From UHGV virus genome UHGV-2163177: DNA of 15,118 nt; one strand, given 5' to 3'. Numbering within the stretch: the first letter of the stretch is position 1; each line of letters opens with the position of its first letter. Shown here piece by piece: positions 1,386 through 14,974 of the stretch. Both the position numbers and the translations under genes were made by a program. The notes below the pieces were generated by a model. It was not told where the DNA came from and made no database searches. It saw nothing but the letters and a program-made list of their open reading frames with translations. Source of the DNA: a virus.

Positions 1386-1406
1386 GTTACTCAATATTCT
1401 GAATCT
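1386..1406. repeat. attL core: 21-bp direct repeat gttactcaatattctgaatct
   Basis: Identical 21-mer at 14954..14974; identity breaks on both sides. The core is followed by its own inverted copy (ttactcaatat 1387-1397 / atattgagtaa 1409-1419). Confidence 0.75.
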
Positions 1407-1528: not shown

Positions 1529-3517
1529 TTAGTTGTTAACTTGTACTTGTTCACAAGAAATATATCCCTGTCGTTTGTGTCTTCTCGCATGAGGAAATGC
1601 CAGTCTTATTTTTCCGGATCTTACTAATGGAACGAGCTGTTTTTCTCGTAGGTTCTGTGGTGTTCGGGCCATTAACTTTGCAATAACACTAAGCGGCATA
1701 TAATGGCCTGAGCAAAGCTTAAGTATGATTTCGTCCATGGTTTCGTTGGAAAGTCGTTTCTTTTCTCTGGCTAATGCAGATATGTCTTCTAACCGTTGCC
1801 TTAAGGTTGGTGAAAGGCACTCAAGGTTATCCACATAAGGAAAAGGTAGTTTCTCGGTTATAAAACGACCTAAAGCATCTCGTTCTTTTTCGTTATCCGT
1901 GATCAATTCTTCGTTATCCGTGATCAAATTATCGCTATCCGTGATGATTTGAGCTTCGTTTGCGAATGAGTTGTCTGTTGATAACGGATTTACACCAAAA
2001 ACTTCCTCTGGAGATGGAAGATCCTGCCCCGGTAATGTATATGATTTATTCCTCTTCTCACCATGAGGGACTAAGAATCCGCCGCTTACAAGGCGGGGTA
2101 AGGCTAAAGTTACCTCACGAGAGTGAAGGCTAGTTAGTTGACAAGCCCGTTCATGGTCAATCCACTTTTCTACGGCTGCAGTTATAACAATACTGCGCTC
2201 AAGCTCACTGAGATGGTCTACTTTGTCGCCAAATTTTGTATGGAGAAGATTGGCAATTTCTTCTGATACGAGGTTGCCAATAGATAGCTCCAAAAGTGTT
2301 TGTTCTGGTTCTGTTTTTTCATATAGCCTTGGCATACGCCAGTTAGCCCATTTCCAGCCACTAAATATTTTAGGGATCCCTGAGCCTGATCGTTCACCAG
2401 CACCAATAATTAAAAACATTTGATGCATCAGTCGGTTTCGACAATCGCTTTCATATCCTTTGATTGCTTGTTCTGGTGGCACGCGCATCAAACCTGGATT
2501 ACGGAAGCCAAATAGATCTGGTCGTTTCACAACCATGATGGAGATTCGTCCAGTATAATCGGCATGAACTAAGGTATTTACCAGCGCTTCACGCAATGCT
2601 GTGTGTATCTGAGTATCGTCCTGTCGGATACCTTCTTTAAGCTCAAAAGGGACTTTTAAGTCAGCAATTAGTTTTCGATAGGTTCGTCTGTAAAAGTCAA
2701 ACACGTTACCTGACCAAGTCCCATCGGGACATAGTCTATCTACCCATCTTCTTTCAGTTCTTGCTTCAGGGCGTTCTTGGTAATCCACAAAATAATTTGG
2801 GGCTACATCTTGTATCGCTTCCCATGTTCCAAACATGAGAATGCCAGCTAAGGTCATGCCTTCCAAACCTGTTTGCCGGTCTTTTCTATATCCCCCAATA
2901 CTTCGTAGGAAAGCAAAGTTATCTAGTTCGAGAGCTGGATGTGTCGGGTTTGAAGCAGATAGTAGATTTCTGTAAGCCAACAAGCTTTCTAGGTTAATAT
3001 CGTTCATGTCGAAGTTTTGTACGATACGGTTGTCGCGGCTTTCTTCAACCTGTTCGGCCATCATGCGACGAACTTGTTCTTCTGAACAACGATGATCACC
3101 GTCGTGCATACGAAACCATGTTTCTGACATGGGTTGATTATTCAAATAAACAGGTTTCTGTTCTCGTCGTGCGATTGGTATTTCAATGACAAGAATATCC
3201 TTTCCCTGTAAGGATACTGTTTGGACAGAGTTATTGGTAAGAAGATTAACGTTAACTTTTTTCTTGTTGCTCACGAGGTCGAAAAGCTGCTTTTTAACGG
3301 TATTTATATCTGAAATACCCGCAACGGAAAATTCCCCTTTTTTCTCTCTAATACCTAAAACCACATACCCACCACGGCAGTTTGCCATAGCACTATAGGT
3401 TGGCCAGAAATCATCAGGTAATTTACCTTGTCCGTCTTTCCCTTGAGCTAGCTTGAACTCTAGCTCTGCGGATTCCGAAAGTGCACGCAAGTCGCTAAGG
3501 TCAGATATTAGGAACAC
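1529..3517 (-). CDS. AlbA_2 (Schlafen-like) N-terminal domain plus HATPase_c_4-like ATPase domain protein, 662 aa; often mis-annotated as RecG-like helicase or transcriptional regulator
   Basis: Long ORF with GTG start 4 nt after a GGAGGA SD. N-terminal ESAELEFK motif is typical of AlbA_2; central ALREALVNTLVHADY motif is typical of HATPase_c_4. Domains read by eye. Confidence 0.75.
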   Translation of the reverse strand: MFLISDLSDLRALSESAELEFKLAQGKDGQGKLPDDFWPTYSAMANCRGGYVVLGIREKKGEFSVAGISDINTVKKQLFDLVSNKKKVNVNLLTNNSVQTVSLQGKDILVIEIPIARREQKPVYLNNQPMSETWFRMHDGDHRCSEEQVRRMMAEQVEESRDNRIVQNFDMNDINLESLLAYRNLLSASNPTHPALELDNFAFLRSIGGYRKDRQTGLEGMTLAGILMFGTWEAIQDVAPNYFVDYQERPEARTERRWVDRLCPDGTWSGNVFDFYRRTYRKLIADLKVPFELKEGIRQDDTQIHTALREALVNTLVHADYTGRISIMVVKRPDLFGFRNPGLMRVPPEQAIKGYESDCRNRLMHQMFLIIGAGERSGSGIPKIFSGWKWANWRMPRLYEKTEPEQTLLELSIGNLVSEEIANLLHTKFGDKVDHLSELERSIVITAAVEKWIDHERACQLTSLHSREVTLALPRLVSGGFLVPHGEKRNKSYTLPGQDLPSPEEVFGVNPLSTDNSFANEAQIITDSDNLITDNEELITDNEKERDALGRFITEKLPFPYVDNLECLSPTLRQRLEDISALAREKKRLSNETMDEIILKLCSGHYMPLSVIAKLMARTPQNLREKQLVPLVRSGKIRLAFPHARRHKRQGYISCEQVQVNN
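1890..1952. repeat. Three tandem copies of a 21-bp unit (tcgttatccgtgatcaa...) inside the 1529..3517 CDS, in frame
   Basis: Units at 1890-1910, 1911-1931, 1932-1952; the first 16 nt are identical in units 1 and 2. Encodes heptad-like ITDSDNL/ITDNEEL/ITDNEKE. Confidence 0.85.
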
Positions 3518-4075: not shown

Positions 4076-4341
4076 TTGACACTTTCCAGCTTAAGACCTT
4101 AACAAACCTTAACATCGCAGGTTGACACACTTGACACTTTTTCGCGAAAAACCTTAACAAAACTTAACCACCCCTGGCATTTCTAAGCATGGCAACTTGA
4201 CACTTTTCGCGATTTTTTCGGTTTTTTGACGTGGTGAATATGGTACAAGGCCAGTAATGGCGCGGCTTCTAGCGAGGTTGACACTTTTTCGCGTTCAGAG
4301 TGTAAAGTGTCAACCTGGCAAGCTGCTCAACTTGACACTTT
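4076..4341. repeat. Iteron array: five direct copies plus one truncated and one inverted copy of TTGACAC(TTT), several extended to TTGACACTTTTTCGCG, interleaved with ACCTTAACA-type repeats
   Basis: Full copies start at 4076, 4131, 4197, 4278, 4332; truncated ttgacac at 4122; inverted copy at 4305-4315; ccttaaca repeats at 4095-4118 and 4149-4170. Lies between the small ORF and the HTH gene. Confidence 0.8.
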
Positions 4342-4347
4342 TTGATG

Positions 4348-4875
4348 TCATTGATGGTCTGATTTTTCCCATTCAGCCAGGGCGTTTAGCCCGGCTTCAC
4401 TCCATGATTCCAGTTCATCGGGATAATCACCTGCAACATAGCAGAGTTCGCAACGCAGCATACGAATTGCCAGCCTGGCATTACCTCGCAAATTGTATTT
4501 TTCAAAGTAATGCTGCCCTTCATCATCCTCAAGGCAGATAGCACCATCATCAAGAAAGTGCACTTCCCAGCCTAATTCCCCGGCTGCATACAGCACACGC
4601 TGCTGTATGTCATCGTCCGTTACTGGCGAAGGAATTTTACCGTCTCTGGCCTTAACTGCTTTCCAGAACTCGCCCCACGTCATTTCCAGCGTTCTTTCTG
4701 GCCACATTTCAGAAACGGTGTCTTTCCCTTGTGCCGGTGGGCTGTTCCGCTGCTCTGTCGCCTCCACATCAATTTTTTTGCCAGACATGATCACTTCGCC
4801 TTTCTCGATCCAGTCGTAAACTGTCTGGCGGCTTACGCCTTTGTATTTGGCGTATTCGGCTTTACTCATCAACAT
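4348..4875 (-). CDS. Putative HTH DNA-binding protein, 175 aa (N-terminal KYKGVSRQTVYDWIEKGEV helix-turn-helix)
   Basis: ORF 4348..4884; start placed at the ATG with GAGGTGA SD 5 nt upstream (the track start is a GTG three codons earlier). Confidence 0.65.
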   Translation of the reverse strand: MLMSKAEYAKYKGVSRQTVYDWIEKGEVIMSGKKIDVEATEQRNSPPAQGKDTVSEMWPERTLEMTWGEFWKAVKARDGKIPSPVTDDDIQQRVLYAAGELGWEVHFLDDGAICLEDDEGQHYFEKYNLRGNARLAIRMLRCELCYVAGDYPDELESWSEAGLNALAEWEKSDHQ

Positions 4876-4974
4876 GTAGCTCACCTCATGCGTATACGAT
4901 AAAAAATAATTTCATGCGGAAAGGGAATGCGTTGTGGGTATGGAGGAAAGGGGCAATAACCGCCCCTTACTGAT

Positions 4975-5411: not shown

Positions 5412-5521
5412 GATTTTTCTCCCGAATAATAACAACCACAACAATTGCACAAAATGAAATGATAGCAATAAATGTTGCAATTAATGAAACACAATAAGGC
5501 CGGGAAAAATCCCGGCCTCCG

Positions 5522-5809
5522 TCACTGACTGCAATTTTTCGATCCAGGGTATTTCCTGAATGCCTTACCATTGGGCTGATGTAATCCCATTCCGGCATGT
5601 GCCCGGCTGATGGTTTCGCGCATCTCCCCGAAATTATCCTGCCTTGCTGGTGGGCGTGCTGCCTTGTGGATACATTCCGCGCGACGTTTTGCCGCCTGTT
5701 CCCGTGCCTTGTCATCATTCGCCAGCATAATGACCTCAGCCCACCGCGCCGCCGCTCTCCGGTACAGACCACGCGCTTCCAGTGCTTCCGCTTTGCTGTC
5801 GTGAATCAT
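5522..5809 (-). CDS. PerC-family transcriptional regulator-like protein, 95 aa
   Basis: N-terminal AEALEARGLYRRAAARWAEV resembles the PerC/Pch family signature (from memory); start overlaps the stop of the upstream ProQ/FinO-like gene (ATGA). Confidence 0.55.
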   Translation of the reverse strand: MIHDSKAEALEARGLYRRAAARWAEVIMLANDDKAREQAAKRRAECIHKAARPPARQDNFGEMRETISRAHAGMGLHQPNGKAFRKYPGSKNCSQ

Positions 5810-6336
5810 GCGCTTGTTTTCTCCTTTGCTGCCCGGCGCTGACGTTTGCGCTTCTCATTCAGCGCCACCAGCCGCGTTTCTGCGTCCTGTTGTTCCTGTG
5901 GTGTCACCTCGCCGCACGGCTGGCCTTTCAGGTCGTAACGCGCCCCACCAGCAACCAGGGCGCGGTAATAGCGCGGAGACTGCGCATAAGATGCCAGCGT
6001 CGCACGTAATGCCCCTGGCCCAAATGCCAGCCCCCTGACGGCGAGATCCTGCATCAGGTCGTCGAATATCCCCACCTTAAGCGGCTTCGGTGCTTCCCGG
6101 CTGAATAAGTCAGGCCACAACTCAGTGAGGCGGTTAACGCGCCTGCGGTTTTTGCGCTGGCGTTTGGTCATATGCCGCCACGGTGTCGCCCCTGTGGGCT
6201 TCTGCTGCGCGTTCTGATTACCGGGCATCACTTTATATGCCGATGTGGTTTTATCCTGCTGTTGCGTCTCCTGTACCATTTTTGTGGCATACCGTAATTT
6301 CTGTTGATGGTCAGCTTTTCCATGTGTACTTTTCAT
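5806..6336 (-). CDS. ProQ/FinO-family RNA-binding protein, up to 176 aa (start uncertain)
   Basis: LTELWPDLF...KPLKVGIFDDL...LRATLASYAQSPRYYRAL...RYDLKGQPCGE matches the conserved ProQ/FinO N-terminal domain pattern. None of the candidate ATGs has a strong SD. Confidence 0.75.
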   Translation of the reverse strand: MKSTHGKADHQQKLRYATKMVQETQQQDKTTSAYKVMPGNQNAQQKPTGATPWRHMTKRQRKNRRRVNRLTELWPDLFSREAPKPLKVGIFDDLMQDLAVRGLAFGPGALRATLASYAQSPRYYRALVAGGARYDLKGQPCGEVTPQEQQDAETRLVALNEKRKRQRRAAKEKTSA

Positions 6337-6415
6337 CGATATTATCCGTATTATCGTCGTTCCTTTTGATGGCTTATTTCTATAGAAATTTCTTTATTGC
6401 TTATTGCCCAGATAA

Positions 6416-6742
6416 TTAACTGACTATTAGTGCTTTAATACTCAGGTACGCAGAAAGAATAACACCAATAAAAGAAGGGTACAGCAGAATCCCAAACAAA
6501 AACTTCATGTACTTATGTTTTCCTGTCACTTCGTTAATAACAGATATTATACTCAACATACATAATGCAATACTTATAGTTGCAATAAATGCAATAGTAA
6601 GCAAGATGAAATATCTTACACCTGTTTGAGAAGATAAATTTGCAATTATACCTATCATAACGAGACTCTGTATAATCCCGAAAGACAAAGCACCAGAAGA
6701 CTTTTCCACTATTTCACTAAATTTCTTCACAAAGTAAATCAT
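6416..6742 (-). CDS. Small hydrophobic membrane protein, 108 aa, about 3 predicted TM segments, AT-rich
   Basis: ATG at 6742 with AAGGTGA SD 6 nt upstream; hydrophobic stretches throughout; visibly lower GC than flanking genes. Confidence 0.6.
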   Translation of the reverse strand: MIYFVKKFSEIVEKSSGALSFGIIQSLVMIGIIANLSSQTGVRYFILLTIAFIATISIALCMLSIISVINEVTGKHKYMKFLFGILLYPSFIGVILSAYLSIKALIVS

Positions 6743-6819
6743 ATATATCACCTTTATATAACGCTATGCTAAGGTTTATTTATACGATATCCCCAAATGG
6801 TATTCCATCACCGTACGGA

Positions 6820-7038
6820 TCACTCTGCTGGCCTTTTTTGCCGCCCGGCCGCACCGTTCGCGCACTGATTACGCTGTCTGCGATAACCAGACCAGCCACG
6901 TTTCGCCGTTCCGTCATCTGCCAGGCTGCGCGGAAGGGGAACTGCCATACTCGCCATTGCCATTGGTGTTCCCTTGCTGGTGGTTTTTGAGTGCAGATCA
7001 GCCACCTGCCGCCCGTAAGCGGATATTTGTACCGTCAT
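6820..7038 (-). CDS. Hypothetical protein, 72 aa
   Basis: ATG with GGAGAG SD 9 nt upstream; same orientation as neighbours. Confidence 0.35.
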   Translation of the reverse strand: MTVQISAYGRQVADLHSKTTSKGTPMAMASMAVPLPRSLADDGTAKRGWSGYRRQRNQCANGAAGRQKRPAE

Positions 7039-7235
7039 GCTGTTTGCTCTCCGGTTTTAACGTTGATGATTGTCACCTGTTCAGCTTCGGCAATCTCCCG
7101 TTCTGTCAGCGTGGCAAAGTTTGCCGCTGCCGTTGTCATGAATGCGCTTATCAGTTCGGGATGTACTTTCGCGTATCCTTCCCCGGCGTTGCGGTCGATA
7201 ATTTTTATCGCCCCCCTCAGCCTGTGTTCTGTCAA
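7035..7235 (-). CDS. Hypothetical protein, 66 aa, start uncertain (TTG, no SD)
   Basis: ORF only; weak translation signals. Kept because the alternative plus-strand ORFs look less protein-like. Confidence 0.25.
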   Translation of the reverse strand: MTEHRLRGAIKIIDRNAGEGYAKVHPELISAFMTTAAANFATLTEREIAEAEQVTIINVKTGEQTA

Positions 7236-7324
7236 ATCAAGGGCGTGAGATTGTGTTTTTTGTGTGTTTCGTTGTCACAGCCTTTACCTCACAGCAATAA
7301 AATAAAATTTTTGCATTTTAACCC

Positions 7325-7552
7325 TTCACCTGTTCACCTTTTTCCGTTTCTCCTTTTAATTCATTGTGTTAAGGGGTGAACAGTTTCACAAAAACTATTC
7401 ACCAACTGTTCACCACTGTTCACCCTTAAAGCTCAACAAATAATCAAAAAGGTGAACAGTGAATAGTTTGATGAACAGTTCATGAATAACTGTTCACCCT
7501 ATAACCAACTGATATAGAACACATTTATTACAGGGTGAACAGTGATGAACAG
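7325..7552. repeat. P4-type 'type I' iteron array: about ten copies of TGTTCACC or close variants in both orientations; putative replication origin (ori/crr-like)
   Basis: Perfect octamers at 7331, 7407, 7417, 7491 (direct) and 7375, 7451, 7535 (inverse), plus variants tattcacc, gtgaatag, atgaacag. Immediately downstream of the helicase gene. Confidence 0.8.
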
Positions 7553-7565
7553 TTATTCCATAAGT

Positions 7566-9380
7566 TTAATTTTTGCCATCGTCATTTGTGACCGATGCAC
7601 ATGAGGGCATCCAGTCTTCTGAATCCTCTGTCAGTATCACGTTTGAACGCAAGCCATGCTTCGTTTTCCGTTTCATATACTCCCTGCCGTATTCCGCCAT
7701 TGCCCCTGGCATATCCTTACCGAAGCGTGTCAGTGTTACGGGCTTACCGAATCCGTGTGCCCTCATATACGCCAGATAGGCGTGATAGAGATACCTGCGC
7801 GGGCTGAACGGAATAATTTCAGCATTACCCACTAACAGGCCATCGCACATTACCGACGACATGAGATAGCCGCAGAAGTCCACCAGCGAATCGCCCTCGC
7901 GTTTTATCACCAAGGCTTCTTCTGATTTCTGCTGCTCATATAGCAGGCGTTTAGCTTCGTCCTGGTCAGAAAAGCGTGTAAGCAGGTGGCGAATCACTAC
8001 CGCCAGCTCTCCTTCTATTTTTTCAGCCAGCATAGGGTCACGTTCGTTCTCCGGTACAACTTCCGAAAAATTGAATATTACCCGACGACGTGATATCCCA
8101 CCGCTGCGGTCACTGAATGACATGGCGTTATTGTTCACCGCCAGCACGACCGCCTGAATGCGTGTTGAGTAGGGGGCTTTATGTTTCGGGTCGATTGCCA
8201 CCTTATCACCGCCTGTAATGGCCTTAATCCCTGCACCATCACCAGCGTAACGGGTCATATCCGGCATGATAATCAGCGAAAAGCCAACCACTAACGCACG
8301 TTCCCTGGCATCTTCCAGCGCCTTCATGCTTGCCGATACCGTGTTGGCCTTACCCGCCAGCATAGTGCAAATCTCCGCCATTACGCTTTTACCGCTTCCA
8401 CCCGGCCCCGTTACCTCAAGAAATAACTGCCAGTCGTACCGATTCGCCAGCACCATGAATAACGCCGCCAGTACGCGATCTGCCTTGCGGTCATTCTCAG
8501 CCACCGAACGGCGCAACCACTTCCAGAAATTCGGCGCATGTGTTGCCAGCGTTTCCCCCTCTGCTGGTGGGCTGAAAGGTAATTCACTGGCAATTAACAA
8601 CCAGTCGTTTTTGTTATGCTCCCGAAAATTACCAGTTCTGGTATCAAATACCCCGTTACTGAATCCAATCAGGTTACGGGCTGTATTCCCCATTACGGGC
8701 AAACTTAACTTCATGGTATCGACCGCCGATTTGATGGCGTTCTGCGAATAGCTGATTTCCGCATCAATAAAAATCTGCGCCATAGCCCGCTGTAACTCTT
8801 TATCCTGTACCGGCTCCCATACAACACCGTTGTAGTGGTGAACGGTGTCAGAATCCGCATTGATTGCCAGTTCACCGCCATAATGTGCCAGGAGAACTTC
8901 GCCGCGCTGGCTTGCTCCCATCTGGTTAAGTGCCAGTGGTGTCGCGCTGTCTTCTGTTTTTTTCTTTGCCGGAAACCGGATAATCAGTCCGTCATCAATG
9001 TTTTTACGCTCACGGGCAAGGTATTCACGCCAGTTCTCACACTTCTGGCTGTGCATGCCATCAGGGTAATAATTCGCATTCTGTATACTTGCCGCCGCCA
9101 GCTTCTGACCAATTGCCTTAACCATTACAGGATCTAACTGTCCGGCTCTGAATATGCGCGCGGATGTGCGCCCATCAGGCACTATTTGCAGATTTCCGAT
9201 CTCTTTCAGTTGTTCATCAGCCAGCACAACAGGTGGCTCATTATCTCCAGCCATACGCGCATCGTGTTCCTGCCATTGTTTCGCGTGTGCCCAGGCATCA
9301 CTACCCGCGAAAATAATTACCTCTGTGTCTTTGTGTTTTATTCCGCGTGGCTGTTTTTTTACGTTCGGTGCCAGTTTCAT
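7566..9380 (-). CDS. P4-family primase/helicase-like protein, 604 aa (P4 alpha-like helicase and origin-binding region; the N-terminal primase domain appears to be missing)
   Basis: Walker A TGPGGSGKS; IKAITGGDKVAIDPKHKAPY...RRRVIFNFS matches the P4-family primase C-terminal (SF3 helicase) pattern; GGGGGG SD; start overlaps upstream stop. Confidence 0.85.
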   Translation of the reverse strand: MKLAPNVKKQPRGIKHKDTEVIIFAGSDAWAHAKQWQEHDARMAGDNEPPVVLADEQLKEIGNLQIVPDGRTSARIFRAGQLDPVMVKAIGQKLAAASIQNANYYPDGMHSQKCENWREYLARERKNIDDGLIIRFPAKKKTEDSATPLALNQMGASQRGEVLLAHYGGELAINADSDTVHHYNGVVWEPVQDKELQRAMAQIFIDAEISYSQNAIKSAVDTMKLSLPVMGNTARNLIGFSNGVFDTRTGNFREHNKNDWLLIASELPFSPPAEGETLATHAPNFWKWLRRSVAENDRKADRVLAALFMVLANRYDWQLFLEVTGPGGSGKSVMAEICTMLAGKANTVSASMKALEDARERALVVGFSLIIMPDMTRYAGDGAGIKAITGGDKVAIDPKHKAPYSTRIQAVVLAVNNNAMSFSDRSGGISRRRVIFNFSEVVPENERDPMLAEKIEGELAVVIRHLLTRFSDQDEAKRLLYEQQKSEEALVIKREGDSLVDFCGYLMSSVMCDGLLVGNAEIIPFSPRRYLYHAYLAYMRAHGFGKPVTLTRFGKDMPGAMAEYGREYMKRKTKHGLRSNVILTEDSEDWMPSCASVTNDDGKN

Positions 9381-9619
9381 TTTTTCCCCCCTGCAACCAG
9401 CATTTCACGGATTTTGCGGATATAGCTTGCTGCACGTTTTTGATTTACGGCTTTATAATGGTCCACCAGCGTAAAATCACGGCGGTAGGTGATATTGCCT
9501 GGCGTAACGTGACGAATAACCACTCGTCCCCCACGTCTGGTGTCGCGGTAAATATCTCCGAGTCTGATTTCAGGCCGAGAGAGACCGCTGGCAGTAAAGC
9601 CAGAATTTTTCTTTTTCAT
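9377..9619 (-). CDS. Hypothetical protein, 80 aa
   Basis: ORF in the operon; its stop overlaps the helicase start codon. Confidence 0.45.
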   Translation of the reverse strand: MKKKNSGFTASGLSRPEIRLGDIYRDTRRGGRVVIRHVTPGNITYRRDFTLVDHYKAVNQKRAASYIRKIREMLVAGGKK

Positions 9620-10409: not shown

Positions 10410-10626
10410 GGTGCACCTCCTGCACATCAGCCATGATAATTTTTCCGGCCTTATCCAGTGCCTGATCGGCTTTTAGCTGCACAAATGCTAAATAATGGGA
10501 GATGCATTCTGATTCTCTGGCTGCGTGTTTATGCGCCACACCAGCGATAGCAGAAATCTCAATAAGTGAATCCATCAGCGTTTTGATAGCGTCTACCGCT
10601 GCATCAGGCCATGTTGCATTACACAT
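10402..10626 (-). CDS. Hypothetical protein, 74 aa
   Basis: ATG at 10626 with AGGAGG SD at 6-nt spacing; overlaps the downstream gene start. Confidence 0.5.
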   Translation of the reverse strand: MCNATWPDAAVDAIKTLMDSLIEISAIAGVAHKHAARESECISHYLAFVQLKADQALDKAGKIIMADVQEVHHA

Positions 10627-10822
10627 GTTCCACCTCCTGGCGAATGCGGGCAGCGAATACCATCACGCAGCCATCAGGAGATTGCTGGCGTGCTTCCTGT
10701 TCGCTGGTGGCCTCGATGTGAATTACACGCGGTTGTGCTGTGCTCAGGGCGATAAAACGCCAGATATATTTATTCAGGTTGTGCGAGTCCCGCCCTTGCG
10801 GGTGTGTGGTATGATTTCTCAT
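10619..10822 (-). CDS. Hypothetical protein, 67 aa; first gene of the leftward operon
   Basis: C-terminal part of track ORF 10619..11470; ATG at 10822 with GAGG SD. The rest of the long ORF runs across the divergent promoter and the opposite-strand RHH gene. Confidence 0.45.
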   Translation of the reverse strand: MRNHTTHPQGRDSHNLNKYIWRFIALSTAQPRVIHIEATSEQEARQQSPDGCVMVFAARIRQEVEHV

Positions 10823-10903
10823 AGCTACCTCGATACTTCTGCTATCGTTGGTGGTTAGACGCCCTGCATGTGTTGCGAGCACTGCGGGGCGTTGCTCTTT
10901 CAG

Positions 10904-10949
10904 GTGTATTTCACCTTTGCTTTTTAATTTACTCACTGGTGAAATACAC
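10904..10949. promoter_or_regulatory. Putative operator: perfect 12-bp inverted repeat gtgtatttcacc / ggtgaaatacac with 22-bp spacer, in the divergent promoter region
   Basis: Arms at 10904-10915 and 10938-10949; a leftward -35-like TTGAAG overlaps the right arm; a rightward -10-like TATACT lies near 10981. Confidence 0.5.
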
Positions 10950-11015
10950 TTCAAGCCTTTTTTTATCATTTTTTTTGCGTATACTGACATACACCAATTT
11001 TTAGGAGATCCAGAA

Positions 11016-11195
11016 ATGGCAACTGGTGCAAAGAACGCAAAATCACAAATGACAACTGTCAGAATCCCACATGAAGTAATGGATGATATTGAGCAACTTA
11101 AAGAACCTGGCGAAAGTACCGCTGGTTTTTTAGTTACTGCCGCAAAAGGCGAGATCAAACGCCGCCAGCGGCGCAAGGCCAAAGAACAGGAGTAG
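11016..11195 (+). CDS. Small ribbon-helix-helix-like DNA-binding protein, 59 aa (candidate element repressor)
   Basis: ATG with AGGAG SD; TTVRIPHEVMDDIEQL resembles an RHH beta-strand/helix start; basic C-terminal tail; only supported plus-strand gene in the element. Confidence 0.5.
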   Translation: MATGAKNAKSQMTTVRIPHEVMDDIEQLKEPGESTAGFLVTAAKGEIKRRQRRKAKEQE

Positions 11196-11462
11196 TTGAT
11201 TAGCGCCGGGCGCCCAGAAAAAATCGTATCAGTCGCGCCACCAGCAAAATTTTTTGCTTTCCGGACGGCGTGGCCAACGGCATTTTGCAGCAAAATATTC
11301 TGCATTTCTGGCGTACTGTGGCGACGGTGATCAGCGCCTTCACATTGAACGAACTTGTCGCTAAAATTCACCCATATAGCAAACATCGCGGTGCTGTAGG
11401 TAATTCGTTCACAAAGGCGCTCCGGCAACGGGGCGCTTTCTCTTTTTGTAACGGTCAGAGCG

Positions 11463-12263
11463 TTACACATGGCTGTTTTCCTCCATGCGACGGGCTAACC
11501 AACGCTGCGAAAGGCGAATTAATTCCGCTTTCCGCTGGTGGTAGTCCTGGCCTAACTCAATCAGCGTGATATTGCTCTGCTCAAGGTAAGAAAGGTGCTC
11601 AAGCTGCAACGTGCTCATGTGGTCGCGTGGTTCGCCTGTAATGCCGTTCGCCTGTGCCCACTGTTTTGCAGTCATGCCACCCAGCACGATACGCGCCAGC
11701 ATATTGGCTTCCGTGGTGTAGTGGTGCTGGAACGTGTTTTTACCCAGTTCAGCCCGGTACGCCTCCAGCGCGGCACACATCGGCTTAAAGTAGCTGGCAA
11801 CGGTGATACGGGCTTTCAGTTCCCGGCGTAACGCTGCGGAACGCACTGGCGCTACCTTGTGTAGCTCCTCCTCGCATTTGATGAAGTACTGACGAACGGC
11901 ACGGCCCTGTTCGGTGCGTTCGACCATCGCCAGTTCTTTTGCCATGTTCACGGTGATGATGTACTCAAGAGCTGTTTGCTGGCGAGATTTTGCGCTCACC
12001 GGATCGGGTCGGCTCAAATATTCAACAACCTCATAATCCACGCCTTCCGTGAAGCCGTATTCTTCAATGCGCCCCTTGATCCACGAACGGAAAACGCGCC
12101 CTACACCTAACGCCTTATGCAACGCTCTGGCACTAACAATATTGGTTTCACGCCCGCCAATAACGCCGGAAATAACCGGGATAATTTCACCAAAATTTTG
12201 CAGATTCTGGTTTTCAGGCCGAACGAAGCCCTGCCCCTGTACGGGCGTTTTTGGAAATTTCAT
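11463..12263 (-). CDS. Phage antirepressor, AntA/AntB N-terminal domain family, 266 aa
   Basis: NIVSARALHKALGVGRVFRSWIKGRIEEYGFTEGVDY matches the AntA/AntB pattern; AGGAG SD 7 nt upstream of the ATG. Confidence 0.75.
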   Translation of the reverse strand: MKFPKTPVQGQGFVRPENQNLQNFGEIIPVISGVIGGRETNIVSARALHKALGVGRVFRSWIKGRIEEYGFTEGVDYEVVEYLSRPDPVSAKSRQQTALEYIITVNMAKELAMVERTEQGRAVRQYFIKCEEELHKVAPVRSAALRRELKARITVASYFKPMCAALEAYRAELGKNTFQHHYTTEANMLARIVLGGMTAKQWAQANGITGEPRDHMSTLQLEHLSYLEQSNITLIELGQDYHQRKAELIRLSQRWLARRMEENSHV

Positions 12264-14953: not shown

Positions 14954-14974
14954 GTTACTCAATATTCTGAATCT
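14954..14974. repeat. attR core: 21-bp direct repeat gttactcaatattctgaatct overlapping the yicC stop codon
   Basis: Identical to 1386..1406; encodes the last yicC codons (...QIQNIE-stop) on the minus strand. Confidence 0.75.

Follow-up and report, generated by a model that had tools for sequence, protein, structure and literature searches.

What kind of element carries a gene for a ProQ/FinO-domain protein that runs directly into a gene for a PerC-like regulator, and what could the two products be doing together? The question is raised by a 15,118-nucleotide stretch of DNA from the virus genome UHGV-2163177 (the whole stretch is called the window below), on the minus strand of which a 176-residue open reading frame (ORF) with a ProQ/FinO domain (5806-6336; here the proQ-like or FinO gene) is followed by a 95-residue PerC-family ORF (5522-5809). 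We suggest that the pair is a regulatory cassette, and an optional one, carried by a phage satellite, an EcCICFT073-type phage-inducible chromosomal island (PICI), in which the FinO-domain protein would bind terminator-hairpin RNAs and PerC would serve as a co-regulator; we give this reading a probability of about 0.55.

The two family assignments, made in the original prediction from the sequence, are borne out by Pfam matches well above their cut-offs. PF04352 (ProQ/FinO) matches residues 64-168 of the 176-residue ORF at E=1e-24 (87 bits, cut-off 27, profile positions 5-108 of 109), and PF06069 (PerC) matches the 95-residue product from the ORF list at E=5e-32 (110.5 bits, cut-off 22.6, profile positions 1-89 of 90). 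The predicted overlap of the proQ-like stop with the PerC-like start is likewise present: the minus strand reads GCGC-ATGA-TTCAC, in which the PerC ATG (5809-5807) shares bases with the ProQ TGA (5808-5806), giving an ATGA termination-reinitiation junction at 5806-5809. We surveyed 76 loci from an IMG/VR scan plus E. coli loci (given as L numbers below), 57 of which have PerC immediately after the FinO gene; a profile search of genome contigs with the family alignment confirmed one locus only, in Escherichia ruysiae, so that IMG/VR and the E. coli collection served for the cross-species context. Of the 57 loci, 55 (49 distinct sequences) preserve the -4 ATGA overlap, which is thus not a product of chance. 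Indeed, the stop of the FinO gene is overlapped by the downstream ORF in every variant of the slot, including those in which the partner is not PerC. A Shine-Dalgarno-like hexamer, AAGGAG, lies within the proQ-like coding sequence 11 nt upstream of the PerC ATG (5821-5826, minus strand). The pair thus appears to be translationally coupled through its conserved stop/start overlap, and we predict that PerC depends on translation of proQ; it would be made by reinitiation after proQ, aided by its own AAGGAG.

The 176-residue protein scores below the NCBIfam cut-offs for both FinO (NF010317, 65.4 against 136) and ProQ (NF003434, 60.1 against 127), which places it in a separate FinO-domain subfamily. 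Its best sequence match in the PDB is to ProQ (5NB9, E=2.7e-12), with further matches to FinO, NMB1681 and RocC. An AlphaFold model built on 20 relatives has a FinO domain at about residues 57-168, followed by a long C-terminal helix, with a predicted local distance difference test score (pLDDT) of ~88-95 over residues 61-170; residues 1-50 are disordered, with a basic N-terminus (pLDDT <50), and a basic helix spans residues 58-73. Foldseek matched the model at probability 1.0 to 3MW6, 1DVO, 7RGT and 7RGU, and only to FinO-domain structures at that probability; the comparisons with NMB1681, FinO and RocC gave E values of ~1e-6 to 1e-5 and template-modelling scores, normalised to the target, of up to 0.84. 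K87, R111, R122, Y123 and R133 align with K35, R58, R69, Y70 and R80 of E. coli ProQ, and of these, K87, Y123 and R133 do not vary across the 20 relatives aligned. As the equivalents of the ProQ RNA-contact residues are kept, we consider it plausible that the protein binds structured RNA. A search for the subfamily returned 248 protein clusters, most full-length members of which have ~160-190 residues, and the clusters with a named source all come from Escherichia, Shigella, Salmonella or Citrobacter. Pairwise dN/dS is ~0.29 for PerC and, in the proQ-like gene, ~0.20 within the FinO block and 0.27 overall, values that indicate purifying selection on both genes. Synonymous-site diversity along proQ, inspected for an embedded RNA element, has no clearly suppressed stretch, in an alignment inflated by one over-long ORF.

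The limits of homology define the unit that moves. Between island backbones, similarity is confined to the segment from ~5490, just past a terminator hairpin, to ~6297-6324; the mobile unit is therefore proQ-perC-terminator, and its G+C content (58-62%) is distinct from that of the flanks. Among the 5,426 complete genomes of E. coli, at least 172 carry >=80% of the cassette, and some part of it is matched in 1,912, at up to nine places per genome. The slot is variable. PerC stands without the FinO gene in L082 and L084, and neither gene is present in L087 and L089. In L004 and ~20 IMG/VR loci, the FinO gene is coupled to an unrelated 82-residue ORF directly upstream of capsid genes; the idea that this ORF is a hidden relative of PerC was ruled out (hhalign probability 0.1%). 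In L075-78 the FinO gene overlaps a 138-residue ORF, after which comes a PerC-like stretch, while L003, a pathogenicity-island remnant, has an intact FinO gene beside a decayed PerC start. A more distant arrangement is seen in L081, where a FinO gene 45% identical is followed by a PerC 43% identical after a 19-nt spacer. A second PerC paralogue, 45% identical, lies ~3-6 kb downstream of the cassette in L039, L060, L062, L063, L069 and L074, so some satellites encode two PerC-type proteins. We conclude that the cassette is conserved, under selection and optional, with a function that is predicted.

The original prediction had placed the pair on a mobile element, which is a PICI rather than a plasmid-like replicon whose origin encodes an antisense RNA. 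A chromosomal island in E. coli A41, 67-1, ABU 83972 and others matches at 99.8-99.9% with a 1.2-kb query, and megablast of the cassette against phage and plasmid collections gave zero matches. In ABU 83972 (99.8% identity over the 1.2-kb query), the island sits between yicC and dinD, with the order integrase, hypothetical, AlpA-type regulator, AntA/B antirepressor, Icd-like, small ORFs, DUF4222, primase, small ORF, partial ssb, ProQ/FINO, PerC, small ORFs and a 662-residue 'RNA-binding domain' protein; no phage structural genes are annotated in it. Pfam backs AlpA and DUF4222 in the window. Perfect 21-nt direct attachment (att) repeats, GTTACTCAATATTCTGAATCT at the dinD-side end (1386-1406, plus strand) and an identical copy at the integrase end (14954-14974, plus strand), lie 13,568 bp apart and enclose a 13.6-kb element, and their positions place the 662-residue gene inside the island. 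Downstream of the primase gene, inverted and direct arrays of GTGAACAG-type iterons (7350-7565) mark the replication origin, as judged from the repeats and by comparison with PMC6092414. The island thus has the features by which PICIs are recognised: a terminal integrase, AlpA, a primase and iteron origin in conserved order, a size of ~12-15 kb and att bounds. Since its gene order is the same as that of EcCICFT073 and Sp7/EcCIEDL933, the window is, by its gene content, an EcCICFT073-type PICI between yicC and dinD, whose induction, replication and packaging by a helper phage are predicted and might be affected by its broken ssb.

That order runs integrase, alpA, icd-like gene, small ORFs, DUF4222 (RgdR), primase, origin, small ORF, ssb, PerC and then cargo or packaging genes. 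In EcCICFT073 and in Sp7/EcCIEDL933, a PerC-family gene (PchE in Sp7) follows ssb and precedes capsid-type genes, and there is no FinO-domain gene; the window island adds the FinO gene, an AT-rich insertion and a broken ssb, and a Schlafen/AlbA_2 protein replaces the capsid-type genes. PchE of enterohaemorrhagic E. coli (EHEC) thus occupies the same slot, directly after ssb, but unlike it, the other EHEC homologues among PchA-E and PerC of the enteropathogenic E. coli (EPEC) plasmid pEAF, the window perC is preceded and overlapped by a FinO-domain gene. The FinO-domain protein itself resembles plasmid FinO and (by description) FopA in having ~150-190 residues, a place on a mobile element, a basic, partly disordered N-terminus and a C-terminal helix; it is 35% identical to FinO of pMAR2 over the domain, and its fold matches 1DVO at probability 1.0. 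Unlike FinO of F-like plasmids and FopA of the IncI plasmid pCol1B9, however, the window gene is chromosomal, lies in a phage satellite, is coupled to a PerC gene, has no near-identical DNA match on a plasmid and has no FinP- or Inc-like RNA found in the window. Chromosomal ProQ, as in E. coli and Salmonella, is its best PDB match (5NB9), and the equivalents of the ProQ RNA-contact residues are kept. ProQ has a linker and a C-terminal domain, whereas the 176-residue protein ends at the C-terminal helix.

The gene pair is already visible in public annotation and is widespread in phage-satellite islands of E. coli. The 2010 genome paper on enteroaggregative E. coli (EAEC) 042 lists the proQ-like Ec042-2429 beside the PerC-like Ec042-2430 (818 bp) in ROD34, a tRNA-Pro island, and reports no functional work on the pair (PMC2808357); ROD34 has the same two genes on another backbone and at another integration site, and L005 shares the ROD34 insertion site. 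PerC-type genes are common in Gram-negative PICIs (PMC6092414, PMC11773190), and in a survey from 2026 ProQ and PerC figure among the accessory genes of different PICIs of Enterobacter (PMC13612085). A review of the FinO family mentions phage- and plasmid-encoded members, but not satellites (PMC9977716). In the searchable literature, FinO-domain proteins of satellites appear only as annotation listings (PMC2808357, PMC13612085), and our search there returned no study of the function of any of them.

The PerC-like protein keeps D4, A7, E11, G14, R17, R18, A19, R22, W23 and C46, which are invariant in it and 24 relatives including PchE, and is 44% identical to EPEC PerC, 50% to PchE and 52% to the PerC-like protein of EcCICFT073. 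There is no sequence relative for PerC in the PDB. In its model, three N-terminal helices form a tetratricopeptide repeat (TPR)-like domain, the C-terminal half is poorly modelled, and there is no recognisable DNA-binding fold. The original prediction took PerC to be an activator of loci of the type of the enterocyte effacement locus (LEE), able to act on host genes. As it was stated, the first part does not stand: the PerC-like proteins of EcCIEDL933 (PchE) and EcCICFT073 are reported to have no effect on LEE1 fusions, and EcCIMP1_025, from the island EcCIMP1, represses LEE1, which EPEC PerC activates (PMC11773190, citing Porter 2005). The second part survives without LEE1-type activation, since over-expressed PchE raises expression of flagellar genes and lowers that of curli and adhesins (PMC7369912), and a PerC-like regulator that acts on the host is therefore still reasonable.

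The window's own proQ-like allele is unusual at its 5' end. Aligned there with L012, L005, L004 and L073, it has a 12-nt deletion and, a few codons on, a 1-nt deletion. The ancestral start codon (6323-6321) and native 5' frame (6230-6323, minus strand) are broken by the 1-nt deletion (the 12-nt deletion lies just upstream of it), and the canonical frame stops after 31 codons as a result: read from the canonical ATG, it begins MEKLTINRNYGMPQK... and is complete to its stop as MEKLTINRNYGMPQKWYRRRNSRIKPHRHIK, where the L073 counterpart begins MTKLTINRKPENSYGKPQKTTQAAQQQDKTT... The frame of the FinO domain can be reached only from an ATG at 6336, 13 nt upstream of the canonical start, and the 176-residue ORF exists because this ATG happens to be in the new frame; residues 1-18 come from the ancestral 5' end read out of frame. 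The window has other sequence in place of the GGGAG ribosome-binding site of L073, and before ATG 6336 there is no more than a weak GGA, ~10 nt upstream. The RefSeq record of the near-identical ABU 83972 locus labels the gene 'frameshifted'. The allele is common to six examined loci (L001, L006-L010) and occurs in several strains, and at 99% identity its protein forms a cluster of 109 sequences. With a 5' frameshift rescued only by a poorly placed upstream ATG, the allele is probably in decay or expressed at a low level; perC is intact. Frameshifts in all related elements, like unsupported domains, would have told against the original prediction; the frameshifted proQ-like allele is the window's own copy, whereas the great majority of the relatives' copies are intact, exceptions including PerC in L021, L022, L049 and L088 and the FinO gene in L080.

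Upstream of the cassette the junction has been rebuilt. A ~500-bp AT-rich segment (~31% G+C; 6325-6825, minus strand) replaces the 3' end of ssb and the ssb-proQ junction, and contains a 111-residue hydrophobic ORF (6416-6751) that has no family match. As the segment is found in ~7 examined loci and the L073 version is 79% identical, it looks like a mobile cassette and not junk. Beyond it lie an ssb (single-stranded-DNA-binding protein) remnant with an internal deletion (6825-7060, minus strand) and a 66-residue ORF (phrog_1231; 7035-7235, minus strand), the positional equivalent of ECs1586 and probably the first gene of an orf-ssb-(proQ)-perC transcription unit. RNA sequencing and rapid amplification of cDNA ends (RACE) in Sp7 have mapped a start 10 nt upstream of ECs1586 and a polycistronic ECs1586-ssb-pchE RNA (PMC7369912). 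By analogy, the promoter-like GTGACA-17-CACAAT upstream of the 66-residue ORF (7250-7278, minus strand) is a candidate promoter for the unit, and the cassette would be transcribed together with the small ORF and ssb from this origin-proximal region. Three bases past the PerC stop, at the end of the cassette, stands an intrinsic-terminator-like hairpin, GAGGCCGGGATTTTTCCCGGCCTT (5496-5519, minus strand), which has a better T-run and often a second hairpin in the relatives; the transcription unit would end at this hairpin (5519-5496).

Where, then, might an RNA partner come from? The original prediction looked to the iterons or the origin, and nothing found in this region supports that: it yields only sub-threshold matches to microRNA models and no promoter/terminator pair. 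Rfam, run at E<=1 over the entire window, gave no FinP, Inc, C4-type or other known RNA. The matches in question, MIR5380 and MIR821 (7352-7516), are to plant-microRNA models, far below gathering scores, and were rejected as artefacts because of their position on the iteron inverted repeats. A better candidate lies further upstream, between antA/B and icd, where a putative small RNA (11374-11450, plus strand), recognised by its promoter-like site, terminator and conservation, runs antisense to the main operon of the island and has no Rfam match. It is preceded by the promoter-like TTCACA-17-TAAAAT (11339-11367, plus strand) and ends in an 11-bp terminator hairpin with a T-run (11414-11439), the strongest terminator in the window; the ~77-nt RNA would fold into a 5' hairpin and the terminator (dG -24.7, z = -2.97). 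Three sequence groups that otherwise diverge share an almost unchanging 3' half and a -10 box (TGaTATAAT in one group) that keeps a fixed distance while the flanks differ. Among the 58 ProQ-bearing loci that have enough flank, 46 contain the element, at a distance of 3.7-6.2 kb upstream of the FinO gene and in each case on the opposite strand; it occurs in 393 of the 5,426 E. coli genomes, the sampled sites having no annotated RNA feature. No trans target for its conserved single-stranded segment was found in the window within three mismatches. An 852-nt open frame (283 residues, no family match; 10619-11470, minus strand) runs antisense through ylcI and the small-RNA candidate; its last 67 codons alone are annotated (Icd-like), and the rest is probably non-coding.

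On the reading we prefer, the FinO-domain protein would bind terminator-hairpin RNAs, as FinO, FopA, RocC and ProQ do, and either protect these or bring them together with targets; the closest candidates for such ligands are the antisense small RNA of the island (~11374-11450) and the 3' hairpin of the protein's own mRNA. PerC would co-regulate transcription, at promoters of the host or of mobile elements, as a small factor that binds protein. Several points weigh against all this. PerC/Pch proteins have been described as DNA-associated activators, and the TPR-like call for PerC rests on a 50-residue helical model of a kind that matches many helical repeats. No RNA ligand has been assigned to the FinO-domain protein, for which there are predicted candidates only. 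The small RNA shows no covariation, its hairpin being invariant, and islands that lack ProQ (L084, L087, L089) have it too, which makes it a feature of the backbone and a candidate ligand only. The origin-proximal promoter region of the window gave no usable alignment with the RACE-mapped promoter of Sp7. Finally, as islands exist without the cassette, the cassette may play no part in the life cycle of the satellite.

How far do other explanations account for the same observations? The window's proQ-like gene could be a pseudogene with an accidental 176-residue ORF, perC alone being functional. The early stop of the canonical frame, the two deletions relative to L012, L004, L005 and L073, the loss of GGGAG with only the weak GGA before ATG 6336, the RefSeq flag and the remnant state of the neighbouring ssb all speak for it, and yet we think it rather unlikely, for the rescued ORF stays open through 176 codons with every FinO-domain residue kept, the allele has a 109-member cluster and occurs in several strains, and the segment that was replaced falls in the disordered N-terminus (pLDDT <50). 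It is also possible to see the FinO-domain protein as a factor that interferes with a helper phage or competitor through helper RNAs or plasmid antisense RNAs, with PerC co-regulating late promoters of the helper or the island. PICIs do keep their interference genes in the slot after the origin (PMC6092414, PMC6739421), and the cassette resembles accessory cargo for interference or defence in being modular and optional. Directly upstream of the capsid genes in capsid-forming islands stand ProQ and its coupled ORF, and FinO-domain proteins are encoded by phage genomes as well. However, of the EcCICFT073 post-origin genes cloned individually, c1503 alone blocked lambda (PMC6739421, where PerC is not named), PADLOC returned zero matches for either the proQ-like or the PerC-like protein, and no helper RNA target is known; we regard this explanation as unlikely.

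The remaining explanations give the protein a particular RNA. It may act with the small RNA at 11374-11450 to tune or shut the AlpA-driven operon, in a loop analogous to FinO-FinP-traJ. The size and two-hairpin layout of the small RNA resemble those of FinP and Inc, and its promoter-like site, strong terminator, fold z-score, conserved -10 box and 3' half amid divergent flanks, and upstream antisense position in most ProQ-bearing loci all fit. We nevertheless judge such a loop decidedly unlikely, given that the small RNA also occurs in ProQ-free islands, that covariation lends it no support, that its expression is predicted from sequence alone and that its terminator may simply end the ylcI transcription unit. 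More doubtful still is a general version, by which EcCICFT073-type satellites would make a ~75-nt antisense RNA opposing the AlpA-driven operon, a FinO chaperone would stabilise or pair it in a large subset of islands, and PerC would be made in fixed ratio, the whole forming a FinOP-like feedback or immunity loop. The circuit of the original prediction, with a FinO-like protein acting on an iteron or origin RNA and PerC activating LEE1/ler-type promoters, draws on FinO and FopA acting on the antisense RNAs of their own replicons (PMC9977716), on long inverted repeats at the origin that would fold if transcribed and on the 44% identity to EPEC PerC. We hold it to be very improbable: the origin has no promoter/terminator pair for a small RNA and gives only the microRNA-model artefacts, the homologues from EcCIEDL933 and EcCICFT073 are reported to be inactive on LEE1 and EcCIMP1_025 to repress it, and among the carriers are isolates of urinary and avian origin, for example ABU 83972 and avian pathogenic E. 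coli (APEC) IMT5155. Urinary and avian isolates of E. coli generally lack LEE.

Other genes of the island deserve brief comment. The 662-residue protein at its cargo end (1529-3517, minus strand) combines Schlafen/AlbA_2 with HATPase_c_4 domains, is weakly matched by Argonaute-associated models of PADLOC, and may be the product of a defence gene; the 3' part of the gene holds three tandem 21-nt repeats (1886-1948). A non-coding segment (4076-4343) with 3-5 direct repeats containing the motif TTGACACTTTTT (families D2, D3 and D9) could serve for packaging or as an array to which a protein binds. It adjoins the gene for a 178-residue protein (4348-4884, minus strand) that has an N-terminal HTH_17/excisionase-like helix-turn-helix motif, and for which the top match in PHROG is the N-terminal part of a small terminase subunit; by analogy with EcCICFT073, it may be an Rpp-like packaging-redirection protein. 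The gene for the DUF4222 protein (9377-9619, minus strand) overlaps the start of the primase gene, in the position of ECs1581 (RgdR) of Sp7. RgdR is a reported regulator of type III secretion and motility, and the window protein has RLGD at the site of its RGD motif.

For plasmids and chromosomes, the role of FinO-domain proteins as RNA chaperones is established. The family found in satellites draws attention to what its RNA clients might be, and the backbone of these islands to a conserved, unannotated candidate for an antisense small RNA. As the window copy is frameshifted at its 5' end, a canonical allele is advisable for experiments. Should the satellite FinO protein have RNA clients of its own, a post-transcriptional layer would be added to the conflicts between satellite, helper and host, and such clients could explain why the effects of satellite PerC proteins on virulence promoters, when the proteins are assayed alone, have been inconsistent.

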